Shown piece after piece: positions 28,241-50,624 of a DNA stretch of 64,000 bases (position 1 is its first letter; every line of letters starts with the position of its first letter). This stretch comes from a virus (lineage: Duplodnaviria > Caudoviricetes): the IMG/VR virus record IMGVR_UViG_3300033073_001332, positions 1 to 64,000 of that record, one strand, 5' to 3'. The notes under the pieces were generated by a model. That model saw only the letters and a program-made list of their open reading frames with translations. It did no database searches and was not told the origin of the DNA. Made by a program: the position numbers and the translations under genes.

Positions 28241-28594
28241 ATGGAATTCTATATACGAAAAAAGGCAACTCTTCCCTTATTAGAAATCAATCTAAATAAA
28301 GACGGGAAATTAGATTATAACTATCAAAAAACATCTTTAACAGGAGCGACAATAACCGTATCAATGAAAGATGTTGAGACGGGTATATATAAAATCACAA
28401 ACGGTGTTTGTACGTTTGATTCGACAAATTTTACGATTATTTATCAGTTTACAAAAAGAAACACAACTTATACAGGAAGGTATGAAGTTGAGTTCAAAGT
28501 AACAAACGAACAAGGAACTATATTATTACCATTAAGGGATAAAATTTTTGTCACGGTATTAGACTCCATAGTAGAAAGTGAATTTTGTTGTTAA
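28241..28594 (+). CDS. BppU-N-like structural/baseplate-associated protein
   Basis: FYIRKKATLP..YQF....T..TGRYEVEF..LP pattern; TATTTATA at 28230. Confidence 0.6.
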   Translation: MEFYIRKKATLPLLEINLNKDGKLDYNYQKTSLTGATITVSMKDVETGIYKITNGVCTFDSTNFTIIYQFTKRNTTYTGRYEVEFKVTNEQGTILLPLRDKIFVTVLDSIVESEFCC

Positions 28595-28661
28595 TCACAA
28601 CTTTTACATTCAATTCACACCAACTTTCTAAATCAATCAATATTTATTTAAAAAATGTTTA

Positions 28662-31600
28662 ATGGCGAATAAGAGGATATCCGAATTACCATACTTACCC
28701 AAGTCAGGGATTACATCAGGAGATTTAGTACCACTTGTAACTTACTACTCAGCAGTTACAGGTGATACCGTACATACGTACATGTCTGACTTACAGGATT
28801 ATCTTCTTACAGGTGTATCTTTTTCTGATGTATATGTAACAGGAGGAACATATAATAAAACAACAGGAGTACAAACATTTACAAATTCAACAGGAGGTAC
28901 TTTTACCGTCACAGGTATTACTGATTTTTATGTGACAGGGGGTACTTACACATCAGGTAGTAGTACATTAAATTTATTTTTAAATGGTGGAAACTCTGTA
29001 AGTATTACAGGTTTAACAACGTCAATAGGGTCCGCAGGAACAAGTGGTACAAATGGTACTTCAGGGACTGACGGGACTTCAGGTATAAATGGAACGAGCG
29101 GTACCAATGGTACTTCAGGGACAAACGGCACATCAGGTACAAACGGTACTAATGGTTCTTCTGGAAGTAGCGGAAGTTCAGGTACATCAGGAACTAGCGG
29201 TTCTAGTGGGTCTTCAGGTGCGGACGGAACTAGTGGTACAAATGGTACATCAGGAACAAACGGAACGTCAGGAACAAACGGAACTGACGGTACAAGTGGA
29301 ACAAACGGGACTGATGGTACAAGTGGAACTTCGGGTTCTTCTGGAACTAGCGGTAGTTCAGGCTCATCAGGTTTAAGCGGAACTTCAGGTTCTTCAGGTA
29401 TTAACGGAACGTCAGGTACTAGCGGGTCTTCAGGTTCTAGTGGAACTTCAGGAAGTAGCGGTAGCTCAGGCTCCAGTGGTTCTTCAGGAACATCAGGGAG
29501 TAGTGGTTCTTCAGGAACATCAGGTTCAAGTGGAATAAATGGTACATCAGGTTCGAGTGGGTCCTCAGGCTCTTCAGGTTCAAGCGGTTCTTCAGGTATT
29601 TCAGGAACATCTGGCTCTTCAGGTACGAGTGGTTTATCAGGTGTAAACGGAACGAGTGGTACATCAGGTTCTAGTGGTTTAAATGGTACTTCAGGTACTA
29701 ATGGAACTTCAGGTAGTTCAGGTTCTTCTGGTTCAAGCGGTTCATCAGGTTCAAGTGGTAGTTCAGGAATTAGTGGTACATCAGGTAGTTCAGGAACTAG
29801 TGGTTCATCAGGTTCTTCGGGGTCTAGCGGCTCTTCAGGGACTTCAGGAAGTAGTGGTAGTTCAGGATTATCAGGTAGTTCAGGTTCATCAGGTTCAAGT
29901 GGGACTTCAGGTTCTTCAGGTATTAACGGAACATCAGGAAGTTCAGGTAGCTCAGGTTCAAGTGGTTCTTCAGGCACTAGCGGTAGTTCAGGCTCAAGTG
30001 GTACTTCAGGTAGTTCTGGTTCTAGCGGAATTAATGGAACTTCAGGAACAAGTGGTTCTTCAGGAACAAGCGGGTCTAGTGGTTCTTCAGGAACTTCAGG
30101 GAGCAGTGGGAGTTCAGGTAGCTCAGGTTCAAGTGGAACATCTGGTTCAAGTGGTTCTTCAGGTATTAACGGAACAAGTGGAACAAGTGGTTCTTCAGGT
30201 TTAAGTGGCACTAGTGGCTCATCGGGGTCAAGCGGAACAAGCGGGTCTTCAGGTTCATCAGGTTCATCAGGAACAAGCGGTAGTTCAGGTTTGAATGGTA
30301 CTTCAGGAACAAGTGGAAGTAGTGGTAGTTCAGGTTCATCTGGTTTGAGTGGTACTTCAGGTTCAAGTGGAACTTCAGGAACAAGTGGCTCTTCAGGTTC
30401 TAGCGGTTCCTCAGGTTCTAGCGGAACAAGCGGTTCCTCAGGTTCTAGTGGGACTTCAGGTTCTTCAGGTTTAAGTGGGACTTCAGGTAGTTCAGGTTCT
30501 AGCGGTAGTTCAGGTTCAAGTGGTAGTAGTGGTACTAGTGGAAGTTCAGGTTCAAGTGGTATAAATGGAACATCAGGTTCAAGTGGTTTATCCGGTACAT
30601 CAGGTTCGAGTGGAACTAGTGGTGTAAGTGGTGCATCGGGAACATCAGGAACTAACGGTACAAATGGTACAAGTGGTTCTTCAGGTTCTAGTGGGTTATC
30701 AGGTACATCAGGAAGTTCAGGCTCATCAGGTACAAGTGGTTCGTCTGGTAGTAGTGGCTCATCAGGGTTGAGCGGTACTAATGGTACATCAGGAACAAAC
30801 GGTACAAATGGTACTAGCGGAACAAATGGTACTTCAGGAACAAATGGTACGAGTGGAACAAATGGGTCAAGCGGAACTAGCGGAACAAATGGTACTTCAG
30901 GAACAAATGGAACGTCAGGCACAAATGGTACAAGTGGTTCTTCAGGTTCAAGCGGTTCTTCAGGTTCAAGCGGAACAAGCGGTTCTTCAGGTTCAAGCGG
31001 AACAAGCGGTTCTTCAGGTTCAAGTGGTTCGTCAGGAACAAGCGGTTCTTCAGGTTCAAGCGGTTCTTCAGGTAGTTCAGGTTCTTCAGGTATAAACGGA
31101 ACATCAGGCACAAACGGTACTAGTGGTTCTTCAGGAACTAGTGGGACAAATGGTACTTCAGGTACAAACGGAACATCAGGTACTAACGGTACTAGTGGGA
31201 CAAACGGAACAAGCGGTTCTTCAGGGTCTAGCGGCTCTTCAGGAACTAGCGGGACAAATGGTACTTCAGGTACAAACGGAACATCAGGAACTAACGGAAC
31301 ATCAGGTACAAATGGAACTAATGGTACGTCAGGTACAAATGGAACGTCAGGTACAAACGGAACATCAGGTTCTAGTGGTTCTTCAGGATTAAATGGAACT
31401 TCAGGTTCTTCAGGTTCTTCAGGTAGTTCAGGTTCAAGCGGAACAAGTGGTTCGTCAGGTTCAAGTGGATTAAGCGGAACTTCAGGTTCAAGCGGAACAA
31501 GCGGTTCTTCAGGTTCAAGTGGTACATCAGGTACTAGCGGTTCAAATGGGACATCGGGTACAAATGGAACTTCAGGAACAAGCGGTTCTTCAGGTTCAAG

Positions 31601-34600
31601 CGGTTCTTCAGGTTCAAGTGGATTATCAGGAACAAATGGAACAAATGGAACATCAGGGTCTAGCGGTTCATCAGGAACATCAGGGTCTAGTGGTTCGTCA
31701 GGAACATCAGGCAGTTCAGGTTCAAGTGGTACATCAGGTACTAGCGGTTCAAATGGGACATCAGGTACAAACGGAACATCAGGTTCAAGTGGGTCAAGTG
31801 GTACTTCAGGCTCAAGTGGGTCAAGTGGTACTTCAGGCTCAAGTGGTTCAAGCGGTACTTCAGGAACTAGTGGTTCATCAGGGTCAAGTGGAAGTTCAGG
31901 TTTAAGTGGAACTTCAGGTTCTTCAGGCTCAAGTGGGTCTTCAGGCTCAAGTGGCTCTTCAGGTATAAATGGTACAAGTGGAACTAACGGAACGTCAGGT
32001 TCAAGTGGTTCTTCAGGTACTAGTGGGACAAATGGAACGTCTGGAACTAATGGAACAAGTGGTTCATCAGGTTCTTCAGGTTCCAGCGGAACAAGCGGAA
32101 CAAACGGTACTTCAGGTACAAATGGTACAAATGGAACTAACGGTTCTAATGGTACTAGTGGTTCTTCAGGAACTAGTGGAACTAACGGAACAAGTGGTAC
32201 AAATGGAACTTCAGGTACTAATGGTACAAGTGGTTCTTCAGGTATAAATGGTACATCAGGGTCAAGTGGCTCTTCAGGTATAAATGGTACAAGTGGTACT
32301 AATGGTACTTCCGGTACTAACGGAACGTCAGGAACTAATGGTACTTCAGGTACGAATGGTACTAGCGGCTCTTCAGGTTTGAGTGGTACATCGGGTAGTT
32401 CAGGAACTAGTGGTTCATCAGGTTCTTCAGGAGTTAATGGAACTGCAGGCTCTTCAGGAACAAGTGGTGTTGATGGTGTAACAGGAACAAGTGGGACATC
32501 AGGTACTAACGGTACTTCAGGTACGAATGGTACTAATGGTTCATCAGGAAGTAGTGGTAGTTCAGGTTTATCCGGAACATCAGGAAGCAGTGGGTCTTCA
32601 GGGTTGAATGGTACTTCAGGTACAAATGGTACTAGCGGTTCATCAGGTAGTTCAGGTTCAAGTGGATTGAATGGTACTTCAGGTACAAATGGCACTAGCG
32701 GTTCATCAGGTAGTTCAGGTTCAAGTGGATTGAATGGTACTTCAGGTACAAATGGTACTAGTGGTTCGTCAGGAACTTCGGGTAGTTCAGGTTCGAGTGG
32801 AACTAGTGGTTCTAGCGGGTCTTCAGGTACAAATGGGACATCAGGGTCTTCAGGTTCAAGTGGGTCTTCAGGTATAAATGGTACGTCAGGTACAAACGGA
32901 ACAAGTGGAACTAACGGAACAAGTGGTACGTCAGGCTCAAGCGGGTCTTCAGGTATAAATGGAACGTCAGGTACTAACGGAACTAGTGGAACATCAGGTT
33001 CAAGTGGTTCTTCAGGTTCATCTGGTTTAAATGGTACATCAGGTACAAACGGAACATCAGGTACAAACGGAACATCAGGTTCTTCAGGTTCTTCAGGGAC
33101 AAGCGGAACAAATGGTACATCAGGGACAAACGGAACATCAGGAACTTCAGGTAGTTCAGGTTCAAGCGGATTGAATGGAACTTCAGGCACTAATGGTACG
33201 AGTGGAACTTCAGGTTCAAGTGGGTCTTCAGGTTCTTCAGGTACAAGTGGAACAAATGGAACTTCAGGTTCAAGCGGAAGTAGTGGTTCATCAGGTATTA
33301 GCGGCACTAGTGGAACAAATGGTACTAGTGGGTCATCAGGTACTTCTGGCTCATCAGGAACATCAGGAACGAATGGTACAAGTGGAACAAACGGAACATC
33401 AGGTTCAAGTGGTAGTAGCGGAACATCAGGTAGTAGTGGTAGTTCAGGGTTAAATGGAACTTCGGGAACTAACGGTACAAGTGGTTCTTCAGGTTCTAGC
33501 GGCTCTAGCGGTTCGTCAGGAACAAGTGGAACTAACGGAACTTCAGGTACAAATGGAACTAACGGAACTTCAGGTACGAATGGGACTTCAGGTTCAAGTG
33601 GGTCTTCAGGTATAAATGGTACTTCTGGAACAAACGGCACTAGCGGGACAAACGGAACATCAGGAACTTCAGGTTCAAGTGGCTCATCAGGTATAAATGG
33701 AACTAGTGGTACCAATGGTACTAATGGAACATCGGGCTCAAGTGGTACTAGCGGAACATCAGGTAGTAGTGGAACTTCAGGTACTAATGGTACTTCGGGA
33801 ACGAACGGTACATCGGGAACTTCAGGTTCTAGTGGTTCTTCAGGAACTAATGGAACAAGTGGTACAAACGGAACTTCAGGAAGTAGTGGTAGCTCAGGTA
33901 CAAGTGGTACAAATGGTACATCAGGGTCTTCAGGTTCAAGCGGTTCTTCAGGGACTTCAGGAACAAATGGCACTAGTGGAACCAATGGTACTAATGGAAC
34001 ATCGGGTTCTAGTGGAAGTAGTGGTACGAGTGGTTCATCAGGTAGTTCGGGAATAAATGGTACATCAGGTACTAATGGTACATCCGGTACTTCTGGTTCA
34101 AGTGGTAGTTCAGGTTCTAGTGGTACATCTGGAACAAATGGTACTTCCGGTACTAATGGAACAAGCGGTTCTTCGGGTAGTAGTGGTACTAGTGGTAGTT
34201 CAGGTTCAAGTGGATTGAATGGTACTAGCGGTACAAATGGTACTTCAGGGACAAGTGGTTCATCAGGCTCATCAGGTTCTAGTGGAACATCAGGTACGAA
34301 TGGAACTAGCGGAACTAACGGAACAAGTGGTACATCAGGGTCTTCAGGTATAAATGGAACTTCTGGTACATCAGGAAGTTCAGGTTCAAGCGGAACATCA
34401 GGAAGCAGTGGGTCTTCAGGTACAAGTGGTGTAAGTGGAGCATCAGGTACTTCAGGAACTAATGGTACAAATGGAACTTCAGGTTCTTCAGGTTCTTCAG
34501 GAAGTAGTGGTATTAACGGTACTTCAGGAACAAACGGTACATCAGGAACTAACGGAACAAATGGTACTTCGGGAACAAATGGAACTAGTGGTACTAGCGG

Positions 34601-37600
34601 AAGTAGTGGAAGTTCAGGAACTAGTGGTACCAATGGTACATCAGGAACTAACGGAACATCAGGTACTAACGGAACATCAGGAACCTCAGGTTCAAGTGGT
34701 TCGTCAGGATTAAATGGTACTAGCGGTACAAATGGCACTTCTGGAACAAATGGGACTAGCGGCACTTCAGGTTCAAGTGGTTCTTCAGGAATAAACGGTA
34801 CTTCAGGTACAAATGGTACTAGTGGTACTAACGGAACATCAGGTACTAGTGGTAGTTCAGGTTCTTCGGGAATCAATGGAACTTCAGGTACAAACGGAAC
34901 TAATGGGACATCAGGAACAAATGGAACATCAGGAACAAGTGGAAGTTCGGGTTCATCAGGAATAAATGGGACTTCAGGAACTAGTGGTTCATCTGGCTCA
35001 AGCGGAACGTCAGGTACAAATGGAACTAGCGGAACAAACGGTACAAATGGGACTAGTGGTACTTCGGGAAGTTCAGGTTCATCAGGATTGAATGGTACTA
35101 GTGGAACTAACGGGACTAGCGGCACATCGGGGTCTTCAGGTAGTAGTGGTTCGTCAGGTAGTTCAGGTACTAGTGGTACAAACGGTACTTCGGGCACAAA
35201 CGGTACCAATGGAACTAGCGGTACATCAGGAAGTTCAGGTTCATCAGGTATAAATGGTACTAGCGGTACAAATGGTACTTCTGGAACTAATGGTACGAGT
35301 GGGACTTCAGGTTCTTCAGGTAGTTCAGGTACTAGTGGAACAAACGGTACTTCAGGTACTAATGGTACAAACGGTACTAATGGAACTAGCGGTTCAAGTG
35401 GGTCTTCAGGATTGAATGGTACATCAGGTACTAACGGTACTAGCGGTGTTAATGGAACATCAGGAACGAGTGGAAGTTCAGGTTCATCAGGATTGAACGG
35501 TACTAGTGGTACAAATGGTACATCAGGTGCGAACGGAACATCTGGTACGAGTGGTTCATCCGGTAGTTCCGGATTGAATGGTACGTCAGGTACTAACGGA
35601 ACTTCAGGTACTAACGGCACTTCAGGAACTAATGGTACGAATGGTACAAGCGGAACAAATGGTACATCAGGTGCGAACGGAACATCTGGTACGAGTGGTA
35701 GTTCAGGTTCTTCAGGCACAAATGGAACATCAGGAACTAATGGAACAAGTGGTGTAAACGGTACATCGGGTACAAGCGGTTCTTCAGGTTCAAGTGGTAC
35801 GTCAGGTACTAATGGTACGAGTGGTACGAATGGAACATCAGGTGTTAACGGAACAAGTGGTACATCAGGCTCAAGTGGAAGTTCAGGTACTTCAGGAACT
35901 AACGGTACAAGCGGTACAAACGGGACTTCAGGTACTAGTGGTACAAATGGTACATCAGGAGTGAATGGAACTTCAGGTACTAGTGGTAGTTCGGGGTCAA
36001 GTGGAACTTCAGGTTCATCTGGTTCGAGTGGAACTTCTGGTACATCGGGTTCGAGTGGGACTTCAGGTACGAGTGGTAGTTCAGGTTCTAGTGGTTCTTC
36101 AGGTTCTAGTGGAACATCAGGTTCTAGTGGTAGAAACGGAACTAATGGTACTAACGGAACTTCAGGTACAAACGGTACTAATGGTACTAGCGGTACAAAC
36201 GGTACTTCAGGAACTAATGGTACCAATGGTACTAGCGGTACAAATGGTACTTCAGGTACTAACGGCACAAATGGGACATCAGGTACAAGTGGTTCATCAG
36301 GTTCAAGTGGTACTTCAGGAACAAACGGAACTAGTGGTGTAAATGGTACGTCAGGTACAAGTGGTTCATCAGGCTCAAGCGGAACATCAGGTACTAATGG
36401 TACTAGTGGCGTAAATGGAGCTAACGGTACATCAGGAACCAACGGAACTTCAGGTACAAACGGAACGAATGGAACTAGTGGTGTGAATGGAGCTAACGGT
36501 ACATCAGGAACAAATGGAACTAGTGGTTTGAATGGTGCTAACGGAACTTCAGGTACAAATGGAACTTCAGGGACAAACGGAACGAATGGTACTAGTGGTA
36601 CTAACGGAACATCAGGTACAAATGGCACTAGTGGTGTGAATGGAACAAGCGGTTCTTCGGGTTCAAGTGGTTCATCGGGTAGTTCAGGTTCATCGGGTAC
36701 TAGTGGAACAAATGGTACTTCAGGTTTATCAGGAGCTGCGGGTACTTCTGGAACTTCAGGTACTAATGGAACAAACGGAACTAGTGGTGCGAATGGTACT
36801 AATGGAACAAACGGAACTAGTGGTGTAAATGGGGCTAATGGTACAAACGGTACTAACGGAACTAGTGGTGTAAATGGAGCTAACGGGACTTCAGGTTCTA
36901 GCGGTTCTTCTGGTAGTTCAGGAACTAGCGGTGCTAACGGAGCTAATGGAACAAGCGGTTCTTCAGGTTCTTCAGGAACAAGTGGTGCCAACGGAGCTAA
37001 CGGAACTAATGGTACCAATGGAACATCAGGTTCAAGTGGTTCATCAGGTTCAAGTGGCTCATCAGGCACTAGCGGTGTAAATGGTGCTAACGGAACTAAT
37101 GGTACTAATGGAACAAGTGGTGTAAATGGAGCTAACGGAACAAATGGTACTAATGGAACAAGCGGTACAAATGGTACGAGCGGTGTGAATGGTGCTAATG
37201 GTACAAACGGTACGAGTGGTGTGAATGGGGCTAATGGTACATCAGGAACAAGCGGTTCTTCAGGTAGTTCAGGTTCTAGTGGTATTGATGGTCGAAGCGG
37301 TTCAAGTGGGGTAAGTGGTACAAATGGTACGAGTGGAACAAATGGAACGTCGGGAACTAATGGGACTTCAGGTACGAACGGAACGTCAGGTTCAAGTGGT
37401 AGTTCTGGAACTTCAGGTTTAGCAACACAAGTTGACGTACTTACTGGTACATCTGCAGGTCTTACATGGACTGAACCGGCAAATGCTAAAGCGGTATACG
37501 TAATGTGTATTGGTGGTGGTGCTGGTGGTGGTTCAGGAAGAAGAGGTTCTTCAGGGCTTGTTCGTGGAGGCGGCGGAGGCGGCGGAGGCGGAGGTATGAG

Positions 37601-40173: not shown

Positions 40174-40175
40174 AC

Positions 40176-43100: not shown

Positions 43101-44756
43101 TGAAAGGTGTGGTGTAACATAAAGTAATTTAATTTTATTGTTTGATTTATTTTTATTTAAACTTTCCCAATAGGCTATTTCCATATCATCTTCATAATCT
43201 TGGTCTCTACCTTCTGAATCTGAAAAACTTGGTCCTTGTGTAAATAACATTGGTACGGTGATGCCAAAATCAAATTTCTTATGTCTATCATTATGAATAA
43301 ATCTGTAAGTGTCGGACGAACAATCATTTAAAAACATATCAACCGCACACATATAAAAAGGACTTGATGGTGTTAAATACTCGGTCATAATAGTCATCCA
43401 ATGTTCAACAAAATGTCTTTTGTAAAATAGCGATTGCGTACATAACATTTCTTCAAATGAACCATGTGTTTTACCTTTTAATTTAATCTCAGTTCTTGGT
43501 AATAATTTAACTCCTAAACCAACAACATCATAATTAGAAATGGTCTCATCCCAATTATCAAAAATCGCATCTATTTCACTTTTCGATACTCCATTCATTA
43601 ATTTAATATCATCTTCAAATACTATTACATTTTGAGCATCAGTTGATAAAAATTTAGAAAACAAATTAACGTATGCTGCATTACATCCCATTTTTCTATA
43701 TTCGGGATTATATAATATCACACCATCAATAAATTCATATCCCGTAATTTCTAATTCATTCAAAAGTTTAATAACACTTTCTTTTCTATCTGTTCGATGA
43801 GGTAAATTTATCACGTAACCCGCATCTGCAATTTTCTTATTTTTATAGTATAAACCTTTTAATTGTTCCATCATTTTATCTATTATGTTTAATCTTTTTT
43901 CTCCGTGAATGAAGAATAAATCTTCCCTTTTTGCTGGGACCATTAACCAATCCTTAATATATCTTGGTTCACCTGTAAATGTAGTTTTATTGTTTATTAA
44001 ATCAATTGTTTCTAAAGTCCCATTCACATAAACACTTGGGAGACCCTTATCAATTTTATATTTCCATAATAGACAATTAACAATAGTCTCTTCATGGTAT
44101 GCTGCATATTTTACCGTATTGTTTTTAATAATTGGATTATGACACATTTCCATCCATTCATTTATAAAATCTAATGAATTTTGACCTGCAAGATAATACC
44201 CTGTTTGTCTATATCCGGCTTGAAATCTAAATGATTGGTCTACATTATACAAATCACAGATTGGGTGTTCTAAAGTTTTTGTTAAATCGTCACCACCATT
44301 TCCAACACCATCCCACGACATAAAATCATATACTCCTTTTGTAAAATATGGAGTTGTTTCATCTTCAGGATATAAATCAAATATCTTTTCTAAGTTTGGT
44401 AAACAGACCGTATCTGCGTCTAAATAACATACCGTTTCTGAGTAATTTTCTAAAACATCTTTTGTGATAAAAGGTCTTTGAATTAAAGTATCATAAATTT
44501 CAATTTGGTTTCTATCAATATAAAAAGACCCGTCATTGTTTACCTCGTATAGGGTTTCACTTTTTCTAATATCACAAATTAGTTTTTTTACATAAACGTT
44601 TTCTTCGTTTATTTCTTCAAAATAATTTAACAAATAGACAAAGATTGGTAGATTAGAATAAGACCTTATACTTTTGATTGTTTTTTTTATTATTGGTAGA
44701 TAGTTCACATTCCCGTATAATAGAAATGATTTTTTGAATTTTTCTTTATTTTCCAT
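40176..44756 (-). CDS. multidomain glycosyltransferase: GT-A + GT25-like + GT4-like + AAH/TibC-like heptosyltransferase + FkbM methyltransferase
   Basis: YLDADT; YVINLPHRTDRK..FEDD; STGGMP..ECNPLVIRE; SLGDTL..GLGSGLSWLAW..VCHGC..WCP..FECT; LDVGASIG..FLKTDCEGGE. Confidence 0.85.
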   Translation of the reverse strand: MENKEKFKKSFLLYGNVNYLPIIKKTIKSIRSYSNLPIFVYLLNYFEEINEENVYVKKLICDIRKSETLYEVNNDGSFYIDRNQIEIYDTLIQRPFITKDVLENYSETVCYLDADTVCLPNLEKIFDLYPEDETTPYFTKGVYDFMSWDGVGNGGDDLTKTLEHPICDLYNVDQSFRFQAGYRQTGYYLAGQNSLDFINEWMEMCHNPIIKNNTVKYAAYHEETIVNCLLWKYKIDKGLPSVYVNGTLETIDLINNKTTFTGEPRYIKDWLMVPAKREDLFFIHGEKRLNIIDKMMEQLKGLYYKNKKIADAGYVINLPHRTDRKESVIKLLNELEITGYEFIDGVILYNPEYRKMGCNAAYVNLFSKFLSTDAQNVIVFEDDIKLMNGVSKSEIDAIFDNWDETISNYDVVGLGVKLLPRTEIKLKGKTHGSFEEMLCTQSLFYKRHFVEHWMTIMTEYLTPSSPFYMCAVDMFLNDCSSDTYRFIHNDRHKKFDFGITVPMLFTQGPSFSDSEGRDQDYEDDMEIAYWESLNKNKSNNKIKLLYVTPHLSTGGMPQFLLKRIQELQKHKDELEIFLVEFCLFSGTYIVQRNQILDLFDENHFFNLSVIGEEKEEEKKERLIDIIRDNNIDIVHFEEISEGFEEFNRVSKTLLNGIFSNDRTWKIVESCHNIWFNPANRKVRPDAYSLVTPFHLKETFKNEPSYKELHLYPIEDFVSEIKESHQIYNDEFKVPMIEKINKREKLGLDLFKTHVLNVGLWTSGKNQGEGVEIARNLWEKNKDVHFHFLGNQAPNFEDYWSPIMQNLPPNVTVWYERNDVDDFMRACDVLMFNSTWECNPLVIREAASYGMKIMARNLPQYMGMFDGYITEINDSDTIDLKSDKLLSLIKNKETYQLKEKSDLGGDLLKFYKKVLELDFMKNEEIKNDYSILNHYIINPYLEINGKTDNKLNIRFFDNNQLVYNQDIGINSWVKMNKQYYTNWRVEVRENDELIYTNTNDYKNKRVFISFGSKSLGDTLSWFPYVEEFRKKHQCELIVCTFLNDLFKDQYPEIQFVEPGTVVNNIVAQYNIGWYYTEEEGTDENWDRNVHKTDFKQIPLQQCASDILGLDYKEIRPKLNLPKVEKKKKVGIGVHSTAQAKYWNNPTGWQEVVDYLKNLGYEVMIYSREEDGYMGNKHPKGVTKFKGGSVQEVINDLSTCEFFIGLGSGLSWLAWACELPVVLISGFSEKWAETTLDTYRVINENVCHGCFNWNRLDAGDWNWCPKHKGTKKQFECTKEITSQMVIERIEKIINKEEPTKEEIITKSEFDWGWMDTDRELAEFHKGAITEEIFNNNIYEKFFEVEKGDVVLDVGASIGPFTYSILHKKPKHVFCVEPSESEFTTLIKNTIGHPVTHINKGLSDTNGIVECDQLFGGESHMESITFDKLVNLYGLQKIDFLKTDCEGGEYEIFKQENIPFIKQNIKKIAGEWHLRSQKDKVRFRYFRDNILPQFENYEVYSVDGVDIKWDLWNEHFIEYYFEVILYIKN

Positions 44757-44808
44757 CAATAAAAAGATAAGACTTACGAACGACTAAATGAAGTATTTAT
44801 AAAATAAA

Positions 44809-45816
44809 ATGCCAACACCAAACAAAATAAAATTTACAACAACTCAATCTAATGGGACTATAAAGGTTGGTAATTATATTGTTGGTGTAAGTAGTGGGGT
44901 AACCTACGGACCAACATCGGTAACAGGATTTTATCAAAGTTTAGCTCCCGTAACGAGTGGTTTTACTATACATCAAAATAAAGCAACTTTAGGACCATCC
45001 ACTTTTAGACCTAATAATGATACTGAATTTATTAATTTAACAAAAAAATTAGGGGGTAATGTTACAGGAGTAACTGATAGTTTAGTATACCTGTCATCTC
45101 AATCCGATATAATCGTATTGAATCGAACATATGAGGAAATTGTAACCAGTGGTTTAACTTTTTGTGTGGATGCTGGATATACTCCATCATATTTAAGGTC
45201 AGGAACTACTTGGACTGATTTAAGTTTTAGTGGTAGTAATGGGACTTTAACTAATGGACCAACATTCGATATTAATAATGGTGGTTCTATAGTGTTTGAT
45301 GGTGTGAATGATTATGTAAATTTTGGTAATAAGAATTTAGGTTTAGATTTAGTAAATAAATCATTTTGTGCTTGGGTTTATCTTGGGTCGACACTTGCAA
45401 ATCCAACTGGTATTATTGATAAAGATTTTGATACAGGTCCTGGTGTTTACGGTGGTTGGGGATTTTGGGTAGGTTCTGACAGAAAGCTTTGGTGGTGGAA
45501 TACTGCAAACCAAGATATAAGAGATACGGGAACTGCAATTGGAACTAATGTTTGGACTCACGTTGCGGTAACATATAATGCCTCAACAAAAACAGCTACA
45601 TTCTATCTAAACGGAACCTTTAATTCAAGTGCTTCAAACTCAAGTGTAAGTGAACTATCCTCAAGTACCCAACCATTGGTAATAGGTTGTATAAGAAACG
45701 CCGTTGGAGCGTTTTTGAACGGTAGAATCGCAAATGTTTTAGCTTATAATCGAATTTTATCAGCATCTGAAGTTTCACAAAATTACAACGCTCAAAAATC
45801 AAGATTCGGTCTTTAA
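44809..45816 (+). CDS. LamG/concanavalin-like domain virion protein
   Basis: DAG..SY..SGTTW.DLS, FDGVNDY, WTHVAVTY, YNRILSASEV.QNYNA. Confidence 0.82.
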   Translation: MPTPNKIKFTTTQSNGTIKVGNYIVGVSSGVTYGPTSVTGFYQSLAPVTSGFTIHQNKATLGPSTFRPNNDTEFINLTKKLGGNVTGVTDSLVYLSSQSDIIVLNRTYEEIVTSGLTFCVDAGYTPSYLRSGTTWTDLSFSGSNGTLTNGPTFDINNGGSIVFDGVNDYVNFGNKNLGLDLVNKSFCAWVYLGSTLANPTGIIDKDFDTGPGVYGGWGFWVGSDRKLWWWNTANQDIRDTGTAIGTNVWTHVAVTYNASTKTATFYLNGTFNSSASNSSVSELSSSTQPLVIGCIRNAVGAFLNGRIANVLAYNRILSASEVSQNYNAQKSRFGL

Positions 45817-45859: not shown

Positions 45860-46792
45860 ATGAAAGACATTTGTTTAGATTTAACGGGATGTAGGGCTTT
45901 AGGTGATACTTTATGTGTTACACCAACAATTAGAAAATTATATAATTCATATAATAGAAAAATATCAGTTATTACAAATAATCCTGACCTATTTCAAACA
46001 AACAATTATATCAAAAACATTTATGATATTAATGTTGATAGGGACGTATTAAAAATGTCATACGATATATTTGATACTTTTGATTTATCATACAAAGATA
46101 ATGGTGTATGTAATAAACATAACGCCATGGATATTAGACAATTTCATGCGGTGTCATTAGGGTTTATGTTAAATAAAGAAGAAATGACTTTAGATTACAG
46201 ACCGAACACCAATTGTATGATACCTAACTTACCTAAAAAATATGTATTAATACATTCAGTTCAGAATTGGAATTCAAGAACTTGGTCGTTTGATAATTGG
46301 AGGTTATTAACAAAATTATTAAATGAGAAGGGTATTGCGGTTATATCGGTAGGGAAAGACTCATCAGAAACAGGAGGTTCAAATGTTGAAAAACCTGCCT
46401 TTGATTTCGATATTGAAAATGGTTTGAATTTAGTTAATAAAACTACTCTTGATGAAACATGGCATTTAATATCAAATTCTTTATGTTTTGTAACGATGGA
46501 TTCAGGTCTACTACATTTAGCAGGAACAACCGATGCTGAAATTATTCAACTTGGTAGTTCAATAAATCCTGAGTTTAGGTCACCATTTAGAAATGGTTCA
46601 CAAGAATACAAATATCATTATGTAAGAGGTGGTTGCGGATTAAATTGTGCGTCTGATGTAAAATATGGTGTTAGAGAGTGGGGTTCAATACATGGAGTTC
46701 CTCCTTTAGTTGATTGTTTAGAACGAAAATCAACATTCGAGTGTCACCCAACGGTAATGCAAGTCTATAATAAAATAATAGAACTGATTTAA
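45860..46792 (+). CDS. GT9-family (heptosyltransferase-like) glycosyltransferase
   Basis: ALGDTLCVTP, MDSGLLHLAG, C-terminal Cys cluster ending FECHP. Confidence 0.8.
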   Translation: MKDICLDLTGCRALGDTLCVTPTIRKLYNSYNRKISVITNNPDLFQTNNYIKNIYDINVDRDVLKMSYDIFDTFDLSYKDNGVCNKHNAMDIRQFHAVSLGFMLNKEEMTLDYRPNTNCMIPNLPKKYVLIHSVQNWNSRTWSFDNWRLLTKLLNEKGIAVISVGKDSSETGGSNVEKPAFDFDIENGLNLVNKTTLDETWHLISNSLCFVTMDSGLLHLAGTTDAEIIQLGSSINPEFRSPFRNGSQEYKYHYVRGGCGLNCASDVKYGVREWGSIHGVPPLVDCLERKSTFECHPTVMQVYNKIIELI

Positions 46793-46817: not shown

Positions 46818-48449
46818 ATGCCAAACGGAATTAAATATAATATAAGTGCAGAATCTTTAGCATTAAAAAAAGGTAATTTTTATATTGCAACAGGTGATGT
46901 AGGTAAAGGACCGACAAGTACTTCAGGATTTTATAACGGTATAACACCTCCTGCCAATGGATATACAATATATTTAAATAAGGGTAGTGGAGGGCCATCA
47001 ATTTATGTCGCGTCAAATGATTCAGAATTAATCTCAGTAACTAATAAAATTTCCGGGTCAAATTATAGTACAGTGGCTCAATGCCTATCCTACTTTGCTG
47101 AACAGACAGATAAGATGGTTTTGAATAATGATTACTCCCCAACCATCACAAATGGTTTAGTTTTGAATTTAGATGCTGGATTTACACCATCTTATCCAAG
47201 AAATGGTACAACTTGGTATGATATAAGTGTTTCTGGTCCCAATAACGTTACATTAACAAACGGTCCCACATATAATAGTATCGGTTACTTAACTTTTGAT
47301 GGGTCAGATGATTATGCTAATTTTTATGCTCCTAGTTTAGGAACAACAACAACTGTTGAGATGTTATGTAAGATGGGTTCGGCATATGATGGTAAAATGT
47401 TTTTTGGGTTTCTATATTATGACGTTTGGTGTGGAAATTCATGTTTAGGATATAATACATCTTTTGGTGATTTGTATGGTATATCGTCATCGTCAGTATC
47501 TTCACTAGGGTTGGTAGGTAATTGGAAACATTATGTATTTGAAATGAGAAGTGATGTTTCATATACAAATAATAAAATATTTATAAACGGCGTTTCACAA
47601 ACCCTGTCACAACAATTTGGGAGTGAAAACTCAAACGCAAGAAACTTCAATTCAGGTTCAGGTCGAATCTCATCTTGGTTAGCCGATTTGAATTATCCTA
47701 TGCCAATGGACACTATATATTTTAGGGTGTATAATAGAGCTTTAACTACATCAGAAATTACTCAAAATTATTATGGAGGTAATGTAGTGACAAATGGATT
47801 GATATTATTTTTAGACGGTGGGAATATTATATCGTACCCCGAAACAGGAACGGTATGGTATGATATGACAACAAGTAATTATTCTGTCACAGGAAGTAAT
47901 CTTCAACTAGGTAAAAATAGTAGATATTCATTATTTAGTGATGGTAATAATCCTGAAATTGCAACATCAGCTATCCTGAATAATGATTACCATACTATTG
48001 AAATGGTATTGATGTTTAAGGGTACAGGAGATTATCCAAACGGATGGACAGGAAGTTGGGAGCAGTTTTTTGGGTACTATAGTGGTGGTAGTGATAGGTC
48101 GCCAGGTGTATGGAGATGGCCTTCTGAGAGAAGAATACACTGGAGATATGACCCTGGAAATACTGGTGTAGATTTTGGAAAAAATTTAGCATATGATGAA
48201 TTTGATTTAAATACGTATTACCATATAACCGTTACAAAAAATGGTGGTATAGCAGAAGCATGGGTAAATGGTACATTTGTAAATTCTAATAGTGTTTCAT
48301 CACCAAAAACATCAGGTAACTCTGTATTAAGATTTTTTGACTACTATACTAGTGGTCTTATGGAAATACAGGTGTGTAAAATATATAACCGAGTTTTGAC
48401 AAACCAAGAAATATATCAAAACTATAACTCTTTGGCTAATAGATTTTAA
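46818..48449 (+). CDS. tandem LamG-domain virion protein
   Basis: Two LDAG/LDGG...YNR(A/V)LT..EI.QNY units; N-terminal domain shared with paralogs. Confidence 0.82.
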   Translation: MPNGIKYNISAESLALKKGNFYIATGDVGKGPTSTSGFYNGITPPANGYTIYLNKGSGGPSIYVASNDSELISVTNKISGSNYSTVAQCLSYFAEQTDKMVLNNDYSPTITNGLVLNLDAGFTPSYPRNGTTWYDISVSGPNNVTLTNGPTYNSIGYLTFDGSDDYANFYAPSLGTTTTVEMLCKMGSAYDGKMFFGFLYYDVWCGNSCLGYNTSFGDLYGISSSSVSSLGLVGNWKHYVFEMRSDVSYTNNKIFINGVSQTLSQQFGSENSNARNFNSGSGRISSWLADLNYPMPMDTIYFRVYNRALTTSEITQNYYGGNVVTNGLILFLDGGNIISYPETGTVWYDMTTSNYSVTGSNLQLGKNSRYSLFSDGNNPEIATSAILNNDYHTIEMVLMFKGTGDYPNGWTGSWEQFFGYYSGGSDRSPGVWRWPSERRIHWRYDPGNTGVDFGKNLAYDEFDLNTYYHITVTKNGGIAEAWVNGTFVNSNSVSSPKTSGNSVLRFFDYYTSGLMEIQVCKIYNRVLTNQEIYQNYNSLANRF

Positions 48450-48451
48450 TT

Positions 48452-48550
48452 ATGGGGCAAATTCATGGAAATTGTGCGGAATGTGGTCAAAACGGACCAT
48501 TAGATAAAAACAACAAATGCTCTGTTTGTGGAACAAAAAATAATAGATAA
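48452..48550 (+). CDS. tiny CxxC..CxxC zinc-ribbon peptide
   Basis: Translated by hand: MGQIHGNCAECGQNGPLDKNNKCSVCGTKNNR; TAATG coupling to the next gene. Confidence 0.55.
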   Translation: MGQIHGNCAECGQNGPLDKNNKCSVCGTKNNR

Positions 48551-49548
48551 TGGCAAACACTATAAAATATTCAACAACGGGAGACACTTTATCAATTAAA
48601 AAAGGTAATTGGTTTATTGGTACTGGAGATGTTGGTAAAGGTCCTTCATCCACCACAGGTCATTGGGCTGCAATAGCACCAAATACAGGAGGTTATACAA
48701 TTTATGAAAATAAAAATGCAAATGGACCATCCATTAGAGTTGCTCCAGATGGTGGTGAATTAGTAAAATGGACAGGAACTTTTTATAGTGGTGTTAATAT
48801 TACGGATGTATATAGTGCGATAACTCATTTAAATACAAACACAACAACGATGGTTGTAAATAAAGAGTACGAGTCAATTATTACAAATGGTTTAGTATTT
48901 TCTGTAGATGCGGGATTTGTAACTTCATATTATACAAGTGGTTCAGTATGGAGAGATATTAGTTTGAATGGTACCACAGGTACACTATTTAATTCCCCTA
49001 CCTATTCAGGAGTGTCAGGTGGATTTTTAAGATTTAGTAAATCTAGTTCACAATATGCAACATCAACAAATATTGGTAGTATATCTAATTGGACTGCAGA
49101 GGTATGGGTCAGATTCAACTCATCTTTGAATGGTCAAGTTGCTATGGTGATTGGTAATCAGTTTAACGGTACTAACGCAATAAACTTCACAATAGGTACA
49201 AATGGAGCTCCTGGCTCATATAACATTCAGGCAGGTTTTTTTGATGGTTCATGGAGAAATACAACGGGATTCGCACCTGCACTTAATACTTGGTATCATA
49301 TTGTAGGTACTTATGATGGTTCAACAATCCGACAATACGTAAACGGTGTTGCTTCAGGAGGAACTTTGAATTATGTCGGAACACCTACATCAGGAGGTGA
49401 AATAAGAATGATGAGAAGATGGGACGACATTGTAAGTTCATCAAATCTTATTGATGGAGATTTAGCAATTGCTAGAGTTTATAATAGAGCGTTATCCGCA
49501 ACTGAAGTTTCAACAAACTATAACGCACAACTAGCAAGATTCTCATAA
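48550..49548 (+). CDS. LamG-domain virion protein
   Basis: Shared N-terminal domain; WYHIVGTYDG, YNRALSATEV..NYNA. Confidence 0.82.
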   Translation: MANTIKYSTTGDTLSIKKGNWFIGTGDVGKGPSSTTGHWAAIAPNTGGYTIYENKNANGPSIRVAPDGGELVKWTGTFYSGVNITDVYSAITHLNTNTTTMVVNKEYESIITNGLVFSVDAGFVTSYYTSGSVWRDISLNGTTGTLFNSPTYSGVSGGFLRFSKSSSQYATSTNIGSISNWTAEVWVRFNSSLNGQVAMVIGNQFNGTNAINFTIGTNGAPGSYNIQAGFFDGSWRNTTGFAPALNTWYHIVGTYDGSTIRQYVNGVASGGTLNYVGTPTSGGEIRMMRRWDDIVSSSNLIDGDLAIARVYNRALSATEVSTNYNAQLARFS

Positions 49549-49566
49549 TAAATAAAAAATAATATA

Positions 49567-49833
49567 ATGGTGATTTTACAAGATTATGACGACAGAAAAT
49601 TCATGATTTTTAATGTAAGTGAATTAGGTCAAATAGATTTTACAACCGTATTAGAAACATCCGCAGAAACGGTAAGAAAATCAGTTGATGGTACAAAAAC
49701 ATTTGTTAAATGGGAGGGTGTAATACCATCCTGTGTAAATAATTTAACCACTAAACAAGGTCCATATACGTATGATGAAATGATAACAATTTTATCAACA
49801 CCTGAATGGACAACACCAATGACATTAATATAA
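49567..49833 (+). CDS. small phage protein associated with the LamG genes
   Basis: ETSAETVRKSVDGTKTFVKW..EW. Confidence 0.7.
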   Translation: MVILQDYDDRKFMIFNVSELGQIDFTTVLETSAETVRKSVDGTKTFVKWEGVIPSCVNNLTTKQGPYTYDEMITILSTPEWTTPMTLI

Positions 49834-50624
49834 TGCCAACATCAAGACCATTCGCATATAATACAGGTTCTGCGATTGCGGGAACTCAACAATTTGGTAG
49901 TATTGCGGTAGGAACGCCAACATCAGGAGTTACTGGTAACCCAAGATGGTGGAATGGTCCCGATGAAGAGTTAGGTTATGTAATTGCTCAATCAGTTCCT
50001 GAAAACACTCAACCGGCACCTGATGGGTCAACATCATCGATTGGTTTTTTTAGGTCAACCGCACTTACGGAAAGTTCATTTATTCAAATCGCACAAAGGG
50101 TATCCGTAAATCAAACATTTGCCACGGGAAATGATGCGTACTTGTGGTTAACGGGGAATAGTTATTGGTCGTCTTGGGTATATAGTGCAACAAGTAGTGG
50201 TGTTACATTTGCCCAAACGTTTACGTCAGGAGCCGCTCCTGGAACAACAATAGAAAATGCTTGGACTACGTTTAGAGGTCAGTTAACAGGAACATATACT
50301 AAATTTGATTTTTATAGTTCAAACGGTCAAGGATATACTGGTATTACTGACGCAGTGAAAGTACAACAATTAGCAAATGCTCTACGTACAGGAACTACAG
50401 GTGTTTCCTTTACAACTTCAATTAGTGGTGTTACATGGTTAGTGACTTGTTGTGCTTGCAGGGCCGGTGGAGTTATAAATGGAGCGGTTGAGTTTTCAAA
50501 TGTTGCCGCATGTAGTGGTAGTAGTACTGCATCGTTAAGACCATTTATTAATAATGCGAACTGGGGAGGTATCGGGTCAACTGTAGGTGCAGCTACTCAA
50601 ACATTAACTCTTAAATTTTATTAG
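49833..50624 (+). CDS. putative structural protein
   Basis: Start MPTSRPFAYNTG; WWNGPDEELGYVI; Gly/Thr-rich. Confidence 0.7.
   Translation: MPTSRPFAYNTGSAIAGTQQFGSIAVGTPTSGVTGNPRWWNGPDEELGYVIAQSVPENTQPAPDGSTSSIGFFRSTALTESSFIQIAQRVSVNQTFATGNDAYLWLTGNSYWSSWVYSATSSGVTFAQTFTSGAAPGTTIENAWTTFRGQLTGTYTKFDFYSSNGQGYTGITDAVKVQQLANALRTGTTGVSFTTSISGVTWLVTCCACRAGGVINGAVEFSNVAACSGSSTASLRPFINNANWGGIGSTVGAATQTLTLKFY

Follow-up and report, generated by a model that had tools for sequence, protein, structure and literature searches.

A giant collagen-like fibre gene of an uncultured phage and its TibC/AAH-type neighbour: a candidate system for fibre glycosylation

Enzymes of the TibC/AAH type (BAHT; PDB 4RAP/4RB4; PMC4358343) hyper-glycosylate, in the cytoplasm, Ser residues of a long protein with repeats whose gene adjoins their own. 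They are built from an N-terminal beta-barrel, an atypical GT-B core, a hairpin thumb bearing two hydrophobic residues at its tip and a four-Cys iron finger. For TibC, which glycosylates an adhesin of E. coli, Asp-110 was described as catalytic base, Thr-226 and Lys-230 as binding the beta-phosphate, Trp-305 the heptose O4 and Arg-286 the adenine N1 (ADP specificity); exchange of Arg-286 for Ala abolished or largely diminished the activity (PMC4358343). Ser rather than Thr serves as the acceptor, at ..QNS*GG.. and ..NTS*AA.. (asterisk after the modified residue), and free peptides are also accepted. The classical enzyme is a dodecameric ring acting on a beta-helical autotransporter.

Collagen-like proteins with sugars are known from other systems. 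For BclA of the Bacillus anthracis exosporium a Thr-rich collagen-like region with O-linked oligosaccharides, including methylated sugars, is reported (Daubenspeck et al. 2004, as cited in PMC9614988, PMC11923368). Like the fibre described below, BclA is a surface filament with a globular C-terminal domain, but it is a spore and not a viral protein, its much shorter repeats consist largely of Gly-Pro-Thr, and its glycosyltransferases (GTs) have no relationship to TibC. In Mimivirus, the virus-encoded enzyme L230 modifies collagen-like proteins of the virus itself; it hydroxylates Lys and glucosylates the hydroxylysine (PMC9614988); in contrast, the phage repeats contain no Lys, and the host of L230 is eukaryotic. 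Mycobacteriophages modify capsid and tail-tube proteins with their own GTs, and antibody shielding was shown (Freeman et al. 2023, summarised in PMC12363180). Phage-encoded GTs acting on virion proteins of the same phage are likewise proposed here, whereas the mycobacteriophage GTs are unrelated, and neither a collagen-like acceptor nor a TibC-type enzyme features in that summary. In Riftia cuticle collagen and in (Gly-Pro-Thr)10, which folds into a triple helix only if galactosylated, O-glycosylation replaces hydroxyproline as helix stabiliser; the usual clamp of collagen-like proteins is formed by Lys-Glu/Asp salt bridges (PMC11923368). In these glycosylated-Thr collagens Pro occupies X and Thr occupies Y, whereas the phage protein has Thr/Ser at X, Ser/Asn at Y and no Pro.

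The window analysed here comprises 64,000 nucleotides (positions 1 to 64,000 of IMG/VR record IMGVR_UViG_3300033073_001332) of a large uncultured phage. ORF 28662-38252 (+) encodes a product of 3196 aa. The initial annotation had described a giant fibre of about 930 triplets, and this was confirmed: residues 123-2921 (29028..37424, +) form a collagen-like stalk of 933 Gly-X-Y triplets with zero interruptions. The sole Pfam match of the product was Collagen (1100 bits). Position X is occupied by Thr (520), Ser (312) and Leu/Ile/Val/Ala (99), position Y by Ser (672), Asn (250) and others (11). Asn does not occur at X, Thr occurs only once at Y, and the hydrophobic residues are confined to X. The repeat region of 2799 residues contains 2 Arg, 6 Asp and no Pro, Lys or Glu, and neither of the known collagen stabilisers, Pro/Hyp or Lys-Glu/Asp salt bridges, was found in it. 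At the DNA level the repeats are degenerate (68-96% matches, every period a multiple of 9 nt), each of the four GGN codons is used for Gly, and Ser at Y is encoded by TCN (391) as well as AGY (281). Thus, the array is old and under selection, and recent expansion or an assembly artefact is ruled out as its origin. Relatives from independent assemblies carry Gly-X-Y arrays of 664-877 or more triplets. If the stalk forms a triple helix, its length would be about 800 nm (~0.8 micrometre). A second Gly-Thr-Ser fibre is encoded in the same genome at 169102-172566, with no TibC-like enzyme nearby.

The stalk is flanked by two non-collagen domains. Residues 1-122 (28662..29027, +) gave no match in Pfam, PHROG and PDB sequence searches; their position suggests attachment to the virion. 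Directly upstream of the fibre gene lies the gene of a 129-aa protein (28205..28594, +), a candidate adaptor or attachment protein, with a weak BppU_N match below the cut-off (E 0.0086) and a match to PHROG 1627. In loci L049-L051, too, a homologue immediately precedes the collagen-like gene. The C-terminal 275 aa of the fibre (37425..38249, +) are a glycine-rich domain of the polyglycine-II bundle type, assigned by both profile and predicted fold. It matched PF21722 (Gly_rich_2) with 24.7 bits (cut-off 24.3) as well as PHROG 863 and 8859, and its AF2 model (pLDDT 92.9) resembled the Bxb1 tail tip (9d93 Qa/Qb; Foldseek E 3e-11, TM 0.66/0.78) and the Pam3 fibre (7ypx; E 1.7e-4). Polyglycine-II domains are described for the Salmonella phage S16 gp38 adhesin, the cyanophage Pam3 fibre and Bxb1 gp33/gp29 (PMC13243192; PDB 9D93, 7YPX); here, the domain differs in capping a giant collagen-like stalk. 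Furthermore, 309 longer homologues were found, and this type of domain also terminates proteins with tailspike beta-helix, Mtd_N or DUF2793 domains. The domain is probably a distal tip or adhesin. Its resemblance to solved tail-fibre domains supports the earlier reading of the product as a virion fibre.

Close to the fibre gene, on the opposite strand, lies ORF 40176-44759 (-), which encodes a fusion of 1527 aa with five domains. A GT8 domain (44064..44714, -; residues 16-232; Pfam Glyco_transf_8, E 1.8e-6, above cut-off) is present in 7 of 80 related loci. It is followed by a GT25 domain at about residues 310-520 with matched core residues 357-391 (43587..43691, -; Glyco_transf_25); this match is weak (26.8 bits, cut-off 24), and the domain occurs in 2/80 loci. 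The L230 transferase of Mimivirus resembles GLT25D1, a GT25-family enzyme, so that this family is common to both systems. The GT4-type domain (42096..42542, -; residues 740-888; Glycos_transf_1, E 1e-8) has the EX7E motif and was detected in 77/80 loci, mostly fused to the TibC-like domain at residues 952-1291 (40887..41906, -). An FkbM methyltransferase (51/80 loci) forms the C-terminus at about residues 1310-1527, with residues 1414-1479 matched (40323..40520, -; Methyltransf_21, E 5.3e-8).

The SLGD..SGLSWLAW..CHGC..WCP..FEC motifs, on which the assignment to the BAHT family had been based, are present in the 1527-aa protein. Sequence, key residues and the predicted fold identify the TibC-like domain as a genuine TibC/AAH-type domain, homologous to the whole enzyme. 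A phmmer search against TibC (4RB4/4RAP) aligned enzyme residues 952-1291 with TibC 42-386 (E 1.4e-67), and identities of 37-41% were found to plasmid-borne genes annotated as 'autotransporter strand-loop-strand O-heptosyltransferase'. The AF2 model (pLDDT 87) contains the N-terminal beta-barrel and the atypical GT-B core and matched 4RAP with E 7e-34, TM 0.79/0.83 and an rmsd of 3.2 A over 382 columns, compared to a TM of only ~0.5 for LPS heptosyltransferases. The equivalents of Asp-110, Thr-226, Lys-230 and Trp-305 are found without exception in the window and 24 phage copies, a set of sequences only 35-81% identical. The same applies to Cys-339/342/358/370, aligned with CHGC..WCP..FEC, which is a putative four-Cys iron finger. 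In the thumb, Tyr-Met stands opposite TibC Phe-265/Val-266, and Phe-368 is retained. In contrast to TibC, the window has Val in place of Arg-286; with one exception, the aligned phage copies have Val, Ile, Leu or Thr there, and Gly replaces Pro-300/Ser-294. Two further differences are the fusion architecture, with two to five domains in the phages, and the neighbour, which is a Gly-X-Y collagen-like protein instead of a beta-helical autotransporter adhesin.

The co-occurrence of BAHT-like and Gly-X-Y genes was examined with DNA-polymerase loci of the same phage group as controls. A Gly-Thr-Ser collagen-like ORF (at least 15 triplets) was present in 56 of 80 phage enzyme loci and in 3 of 80 control loci; this is strongly non-random, but the counts do not represent independent events, because related phages account for a large part of it. 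Restricted to full-length loci, the numbers were 33/38 and 1/34, and at five full-length enzyme loci no collagen-like gene was detected within 10 kb. In the reverse direction, the enzyme was found in 16 of 50 further viral records bearing the GTSGTNGTSGTNG-coding motif, mostly fragments less than 30% complete; three records at least 64% complete had no enzyme. For comparison, the enzyme search of the whole IMG/VR gave 373 hits in 2.9 million contigs. The pairing outlasts changes of orientation, side and fusion architecture, with enzyme ORFs from 378 to 1527 aa.

In a quick tree, the enzymes fell into a classical and a separate, collagen-linked clade (split support 100%). The classical clade has kept Arg-286 and adjoins autotransporter-like ORFs, with Gly-X-Y neighbours in 0/20 cases; in the collagen-linked clade the residue at 286 is aliphatic and Gly-X-Y neighbours occurred in 46/74. 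The latter clade includes chromosomal stand-alone enzymes of Methylococcales, Polaromonas and Burkholderiaceae, likewise with an aliphatic residue at this position. Their partners are small secreted proteins with a signal peptide and (Gly-Thr-Ser)n tracts of 12-39 triplets, and the pairs are set among housekeeping genes, with no phage structural genes around. The strongly non-random pairing has survived transfer between phages and bacteria as well as rearrangements, and this is stronger evidence for coupling than the counts. Hence, the fibre is the most likely acceptor, and the TibC-like enzyme would most likely sugar-coat it.

The other neighbours had been annotated largely correctly: besides the five-domain fusion, a GT9 and three LamG proteins were verified with Pfam. 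A supposed GT-A/GT4 fusion proved roughly right. This 644-aa accessory protein (38239..40173, -) combines DUF6734 (GT-A-like, DTD motif; E 1.2e-8) with a divergent GT4-like half. This C-terminal half, paralogous to the adjoining enzyme's GT4 domain (BLASTP 1e-11), lacks the first Glu of EX7E; the N-terminal half was found in 0/80 related loci. The stand-alone GT9 (45860..46792, +; Glyco_transf_9, E 5.4e-14) has an LGD motif and a C-terminal Cys cluster, and was present in 43/80 loci. The three LamG/ConA-like proteins are encoded at 44809..45816 (+; Laminin_G_3, E 3.9e-22; PHROG 8510 'virion structural protein', 24074), 46818..48449 (+; E 3.6e-10; PHROG 24074, 8510) and 48550..49548 (+; E 1.2e-18; PHROG 8510, 8147 'tail fiber protein'). 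A Ser/Thr/Gly-rich protein of 272 aa (49806..50624, +) gave no match in Pfam and PHROG searches; it is conserved in the module, with homologues in 22/80 enzyme loci and 0/80 control loci.

With these neighbours, the GTs might act on host LPS or lipid-linked glycans, or on other virion proteins (LamG, 272-aa, capsid, sheath), and adjoin the giant fibre gene merely through a shared late structural block. GT9, GT4, GT8 and GT25 are classic LPS-core families, the best PDB match of the stand-alone GT9 was RfaF (1PSW, E 2.4e-5, weak) and the GT4 domain hit WaaG/RfaG (E 0.6, not significant); moreover, the LamG and 272-aa genes are also conserved in the module. We nevertheless consider other targets unlikely, since the TibC-type subfamily is known solely for protein Ser O-glycosylation, the enzyme recurs with (Gly-Thr-Ser)n partners in bacterial chromosomes away from phage structural genes, and the pairing holds through rearrangements while collagen-like genes are rare in control loci of the same phages.

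We therefore favour glycosylation of the fibre, and for this explanation as a whole, including fibre anatomy, TibC-like action and helix stabilisation, we estimate a probability of about 0.6. The fibre would consist of a short N-terminal attachment domain, the 933-triplet Gly-[Thr/Ser]-[Ser/Asn] stalk and the polyglycine-II distal tip. In the cytoplasm of the infected cell the TibC-like domain would O-glycosylate it, as proposed by analogy with TibC/AAH. The likeliest sites are Y-position Ser residues in Thr/Ser-Ser-Gly context, of which the stalk contains 648 per chain ([T/S]-S-G); this fits the acceptor chemistry of TibC at the two sites given above. The stand-alone GT9, together with GT4, GT8 and GT25 of the fusion protein, may then extend the first sugar, and the FkbM domain may methylate it. 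The sugar coat probably folds or stabilises the triple helix and also covers the fibre surface. It is probably needed for the helix, because without proline and Lys/Glu pairs both known modes of holding one are missing. Stabilisation of a Pro-free and charge-free triple helix is at least as likely a purpose as adhesion, receptor mimicry or protease shielding, which had been suggested before. Against this mechanism, classical TibC works as a dodecameric ring on a beta-helical acceptor very different from the fibre, and the domain here is embedded in a 1527-aa fusion. Further points against it are the second Gly-Thr-Ser fibre of this genome, the three more complete records and the five full-length loci in which the pairing is missing.

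The lack of Pro and charged pairs could also mean that the array is glycosylated but not helical, and serves in phages and bacteria as a flexible, mucin-like spacer or brush. The Gly periodicity would then reflect the acceptor motif of the enzyme and not helix packing. The known sites, Ser followed by Gly or Ala, are in line with this, as are the small, secreted bacterial partners with just 12-39 triplets, and the Bxb1 chains matched by the tip may be the 'tail wing brush' gp33, a listed polyglycine-II protein. In contrast, helix packing is favoured by the strict X/Y asymmetry, by the Pfam Collagen score and by the fact that all 933 triplets have kept Gly and frame although the DNA has diverged and X and Y carry ~110 substitutions; glycosylated Thr is a known substitute for hydroxyproline. 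We regard a non-helical array as improbable.

The O-heptosylation claimed initially is not established. The adenine-reading Arg of TibC is lost, and an ADP-heptose pathway was not found in this genome or in four other near-complete phage genomes with the enzyme, a search of five other records giving nothing above cut-off; HldE-type and NTP_transferase genes were absent from the genome, which has only a GmhA-like isomerase. These two points, together with the crippling effect of the Ala mutation in TibC, might indicate a catalytically dead or repurposed domain, e.g. a repeat-binding chaperone or scaffold, but this is very improbable given the invariance of the catalytic Asp, Thr and Lys, Trp and four Fe-Cys among such divergent copies and the fusion to intact-looking transferases and a methyltransferase. 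Concerning other donors, it was correctly noted that none is encoded in the window. A supply from the host, which had been considered probable, no longer follows, since the same genome carries GDP-sugar and CMP-sugar pathway genes at ~83-92 kb: GDP-mannose 4,6-dehydratase, a DegT aminotransferase, an epimerase/reductase, NeuB, the GmhA-like isomerase and a CMP-transferase.

The 1527-aa fusion enzyme encoded next to the fibre gene (40176-44759, minus strand) contains a GT9-like domain of the TibC/AAH type. A phmmer search against the PDB aligned its residues 952-1291 with residues 42-386 of E. coli TibC at E 1.4e-67, and the next match had E 0.6. The AlphaFold2 model of residues 900-1300 (pLDDT 87) was superposed on TibC with TM scores of 0.79/0.83 and an rmsd of 3.2 Å over 382 columns; LPS heptosyltransferases reached only about 0.5 against this model. 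The relationship to TibC/AAH, assigned in the initial annotation by a signature motif, was thus confirmed by sequence search and by fold. The alignment comprised the window copy, 24 copies from other phages and three bacterial enzymes encoded on plasmids. The equivalents of Asp-110, Thr-226, Lys-230 and Trp-305 (TibC numbering) and all four cysteines were invariant. In TibC, the catalytic base is Asp-110; the beta-phosphate is held by Thr-226 and Lys-230, O4 of the heptose by Trp-305, and iron by Cys-339, Cys-342, Cys-358 and Cys-370 (PMC4358343). The one exception is Arg-286, which touches N1 of the adenine in TibC and confers ADP specificity (PMC4358343). It is replaced by Val in the window and by Val, Leu, Ile or Thr in all phage copies but one. 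Thus, the predicted catalytic machinery is intact, but the residue reading the nucleotide is not. In addition, the equivalent of Pro-300 is Gly and the thumb tip is Tyr-Met; in TibC, Pro-300 (Ser-294 in AAH) governs D,D versus L,D stereoselectivity, and Phe-265/Val-266 form the hydrophobic thumb tip required for the dodecamer (PMC4358343). Regarding the claim of a heptosyltransferase of this family (BAHT), family, key residues and fold stand, whereas transfer of heptose is unproven: Arg-286 is replaced and genes for heptose activation were not found.

The same polypeptide carries a GT8 domain (residues 16-232, E 1.8e-6), a GT25 domain matched at residues 357-391 (26.8 bits, cut-off 24), a GT4-type domain with EX7E motif (residues 740-888, E 1e-8) and an FkbM methyltransferase matched at residues 1414-1479 (E 5e-8). 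The coordinate 44756 given for this enzyme previously agrees with the likely start, an ATG one codon into the open reading frame. The neighbouring 644-aa protein (38239-40173, minus strand) combines DUF6734 with a divergent GT4 copy (BLASTP 1e-11) without the first Glu of EX7E. No counterpart of the DUF6734 half was detected in 80 related loci, not even in the closest relative, whose genes for the fibre and the five-domain enzyme are immediate neighbours; this half is a recent insertion in the window phage. A stand-alone GT9 (45860-46792, plus strand) shows an LGD motif and a C-terminal cluster of four cysteines (GGCGLNC ... DC ... FEC). The cluster recalls the iron finger of TibC; the rest of the protein is nearer to LPS heptosyltransferase II. 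Three LamG/ConA-like proteins and a Ser/Thr/Gly-rich protein of 272 aa (49806-50624, plus strand) are also encoded in this region. No PHROG family was found for the TibC-like domain, for the stand-alone GT9, or for the DUF6734 and GT4-like halves of the 644-aa protein.

The proposed acceptor is the 3196-aa fibre (28662-38252, plus strand; 268 kDa). Its stalk, residues 123-2921, consists of 933 consecutive Gly-X-Y triplets with no interruption, in agreement with the roughly 930 triplets of Ser, Thr and Asn noted initially. Position X is occupied by Thr (520), Ser (312) and otherwise Leu, Ile, Val or Ala, and position Y by Ser (672), Asn (250) and 11 others. The asymmetry is strong, with Asn 250 times at Y versus never at X, and Thr 520 times at X versus once at Y. 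Pro, Lys, Glu and His are absent from the repeat region, and only two Arg and six Asp occur. As a triple helix, the 2799 residues would extend over about 800 nm. On the DNA level the repeat copies match by 68-96%, with every period a multiple of 9 nt; all four Gly codons are used, and Ser at Y is encoded by both TCN and AGY codons. With DNA so degenerate and codons so mixed, Gly periodicity and Ser identity are kept by selection. The degenerate repeats rule out a recent expansion of the array and, together with arrays of 664-877 or more triplets in independently assembled relatives, also an assembly artefact or a collapsed assembly. The G+C content of the fibre gene (46%) is high as a by-product of codon composition. 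The same composition accounts for an antisense open reading frame of 2707 aa (28946-37069, minus strand; Ser+Thr fraction 0.01), which was rejected as a gene. Asn at Y followed by Gly-Thr/Ser creates 240 Asn-Gly-Thr/Ser sequons in the stalk (29028-37424); a GT41 cytoplasmic N-glycosyltransferase, a possible user of them, was not found in the genome.

The association of enzyme and repeat was examined in both directions. In IMG/VR, 373 stretches encode a relative of the TibC-like domain. Among the best 80 of these loci (55-81% identity), a collagen-like open reading frame with at least 15 triplets of the Thr/Ser-Ser/Asn type was present in 56, in 33 of the 38 loci of at least 20 kb, and in 36 of the 41 flanked by 8 kb or more on each side. 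Control loci from the same phage group, taken around the family-B DNA polymerase (80 loci; 1.43 Mb versus 1.35 Mb) contained such a frame in only three cases, one of them among 34 full-length loci; these counts take in related phages and are not independent events. Co-occurrence with Gly-X-Y genes, suggested earlier as a check on the idea that the phage glycosylates its own fibre, was thus observed. The convergent, adjacent layout of the window is the commonest. The pairing is also kept where the fibre gene lies upstream or runs in the same direction as the enzyme gene, and across enzyme frames of anywhere between 378 and 1527 aa. GT4 and the TibC-like domain form the conserved core of the module, occurring in 77-80 of 80 loci. 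FkbM (51/80), GT9 (43/80) and the 272-aa protein (22/80) are less regular; GT8 (7/80) and GT25 (2/80) are extras of the window phage and its closest relative. More distantly, Microcystis phage Mel-JY01 (50% identity) encodes a GT4-methyltransferase-TibC fusion with a 162-triplet frame nearby, and a 735-kb uncultured phage (42% identity) has a 29-triplet frame 5 kb from the enzyme. No collagen-like frame was found in a third distant phage (35% identity). For the reverse direction, a DNA pattern coding for GTSGTNGTSGTNG matched at least 119 viral stretches. The enzyme was present in 16 of 50 records outside the starting set, among them three of the four that are at least 90% complete; the remaining records were mostly fragments less than 30% complete.

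The most informative result is a clade of bacterial relatives. When prokaryotes were scanned with a single genome for each species, 44 loci in two groups were obtained. Enzymes of the first group, from Selenomonadaceae, Acidaminococcaceae, Burkholderiaceae, Acetobacteraceae and plasmids of E. coli and Salmonella, keep Arg-286 and adjoin large autotransporter-like frames rich in Ser, Thr, Gly and Asn or annotated AIDA-I; no collagen-like neighbour was found in this group. Enzymes of the second group, from Methylococcales, Polaromonas, other Burkholderiales and a Binatia MAG, have Val or Ile at this position. They are stand-alone proteins of 375-440 aa and adjoin small signal-peptide proteins with a (Gly-Thr-Ser)n tract, for example in loci L183 (11142-12023, minus strand; 39 triplets), L184 (8917-9762, plus strand) and L177 (9097-9204, plus strand). 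Several loci initially scored as lacking a repeat, including that of cultured Methylobacter luteus, have shorter tracts beside the enzyme. Since the surroundings are housekeeping genes (Hsp70, thymidylate synthase, alkaline phosphatase, a MiaB-like enzyme), these repeat proteins are not prophage fibres. Among 94 distinct sequences, an aliphatic residue at 286 accompanied a collagen-like neighbour in 45 of 46 cases, and Arg-286 an autotransporter-like neighbour in 8 of 10. A quick maximum-likelihood tree, rooted at the midpoint only, separated the classical clade (20 rows, none with a collagen-like neighbour) from the collagen-linked clade (74 rows, 46 with one) with 100% SH-aLRT support. If the repeat were not the acceptor, it would be difficult to account for one enzyme variant accompanying one short repeat across unrelated genomic settings. 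The stand-alone enzyme and the (Gly-Thr-Ser)n protein look like an undescribed bacterial protein-glycosylation pair.

The chemistry of the family is compatible with such an acceptor. TibC acts on synthetic peptides, and its targets at ..QNS*GG.. and ..NTS*AA.. are Ser rather than Thr residues (PMC4358343). Each fibre chain offers 648 Thr/Ser-Ser-Gly sites. BAHTs work in the cytoplasm, before export, which suits both phage assembly in the cytoplasm and the bacterial signal-peptide proteins. Collagen-like proteins are normally stabilised by Pro/Hyp or by salt bridges of Lys with Glu/Asp, and (Gly-Pro-Thr)10 stays a random coil as long as its Thr residues carry no galactose (PMC11923368). Glycosylated Thr is used by the cuticle collagen of vent worms and by the collagen-like protein BclA (PMC11923368; PMC9614988). 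For a stalk without Pro and without charges, a helix stabilised by sugar would be the most economical reading.

A more far-reaching reading is given a probability of roughly 0.35. The collagen-linked enzymes would be a sister clade, so far undescribed, of the autotransporter heptosyltransferases with (Gly-Thr/Ser-Ser)n collagen-like repeats as dedicated acceptors, distributed over hundreds of aquatic phages as multi-enzyme fusions and over Methylococcales and Comamonadaceae as stand-alone proteins beside small secreted repeat proteins. Their donor would differ from ADP-heptose, because the adenine-reading Arg is lost. The glycan would let proline-free, charge-free triple helices of up to about 0.8 micrometres fold, a third, enzyme-written kind of collagen stabilisation. 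All evidence being computational, incorporation of the fibre into the virion, its trimerisation and triple helix, the site that is modified and the sugar attached are inferred for the window phage. Surface shielding, adhesion or mimicry are possible functions as well and are compatible with helix stabilisation. GT9, GT4, GT8 and GT25 are also families of LPS-core synthesis, and a fibre glycan resembling core oligosaccharide is a speculation. DNA glycosylation by the module was rejected, the TibC-type enzyme being a protein Ser transferase.

Precedents exist for parts of this reading. Mimivirus L230 acts on viral collagen-like proteins (PMC9614988), BclA is likewise a collagen-like protein with glycosylated Thr, and mycobacteriophages have capsid and tail-tube proteins glycosylated by phage-encoded functions according to Freeman 2023, as cited in PMC12363180. 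Our literature searches found nothing joining phages, collagen-like proteins and TibC-type enzymes; 'autotransporter heptosyltransferase' with 'phage' returned unrelated reviews. Glycosylation of the fibre by this enzyme would bring an adhesin-glycosylating family, so far known from bacteria only, to viruses and to collagen-like repeats as a new class of acceptor. It would also account for triple helices of great length that lack both proline and salt bridges. Whether Thr/Ser glycosylation takes place on unfolded chains or folded helices is stated as unknown (PMC11923368); a two-gene system would allow this question to be asked. Cultured Methylobacter luteus IMV-B-3098 carries a bacterial member and would be a tractable genetic host. 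Furthermore, a processive enzyme on a simple Gly-Thr-Ser repeat could serve glycosylated collagen-like biomaterials, and a sugar-coated fibre would bear on phage adsorption and on recognition of phages.

Donors were initially assumed to come from the host. None of the donor-pathway families tested was found in the window, as stated then, but the same genome has a sugar-nucleotide block at about 83-92 kb (L091:4188-13330), which weakens this assumption. It encodes GDP-mannose 4,6-dehydratase, a DegT aminotransferase, an epimerase/reductase, NeuB, a GmhA-like SIS isomerase, an SDR, a class IV aminotransferase and a CMP-transferase. A heptose kinase or nucleotidyltransferase was not found in this genome (record about 75% complete); families for ADP- or GDP-heptose activation (NTP_transferase, cytidylyltransferase-like, rfaE domain II) were absent or far below cut-off. 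Likewise, four other near-complete enzyme-bearing phage genomes and Mel-JY01 gave nothing above cut-off for heptose genes.

The C-terminal 275 aa of the fibre matched Pfam PF21722 (Gly_rich_2), barely over cut-off, and PHROGs 863 and 8859; a PDB sequence search gave nothing meaningful. Its 309 homologues end longer proteins, many with tailspike-type beta-helix, Mtd_N or DUF2793. With an AlphaFold2 model from 30 sequences (pLDDT 92.9, pTM 0.90), Foldseek identified chains Qa/Qb of the tail tip of mycobacteriophage Bxb1 (E 3e-11, TM 0.66/0.78) and the fibre of cyanophage Pam3 (E 1.7e-4), with ALK glycine-rich domains far behind. Such domains have been identified as bundles of polyglycine-II helices, resembling the domain with which gp38 of Salmonella phage S16 binds its receptor (PMC13243192, 2026). 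This modelled tip fold is the best, though indirect, support for the protein being a tail fibre of the virion that carries a binding head at its far end. The N-terminal 122 aa had no match in family or PDB sequence searches. A second collagen-like fibre of about 1154 aa (169102-172566, plus strand; locus L090) lies outside the window, far from the glycosyltransferase module. Four short Gly-Thr-Ser, Gly-Ser-Ser or Gly-Thr-Asn segments with 59 triplets in total alternate with globular parts, and it could be another acceptor, in trans. No similarity was detectable between the N-termini of the two fibres.

The record comprises 219.5 kb, estimated as 75% complete, of which the window is the first 64 kb (G+C about 30%). 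Many window proteins are without known families. Even the closest phages in culture are remote: the large terminase (61846-63621) shares no more than 27-29% identity with its counterparts in Microcystis phage Mel-JY01 and in Flavobacterium phages. No tRNA genes were found in the window, so this route gives no clue to the host. Two MAG contigs labelled Bacteroides/Bacteroidetes (L173 and L174, 33% G+C) encode GT4-TibC-type fusions of 924-960 aa and collagen-like frames. They look like phage DNA that was binned into Bacteroidota genomes, which points weakly to the phylum of the host. A Lon-like ATP-dependent protease (54149-57286, minus strand; PHROG 4871, E 1.5e-224) adjoins a peptidase (PHROG 4191), an unusual pair for a phage. 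Finally, a 129-aa protein (28205-28594, plus strand) has a weak BppU_N-like match. In other phages, homologues immediately precede the collagen-like gene; a paralogue occurs near the DNA polymerase in 69 of the 80 control loci.
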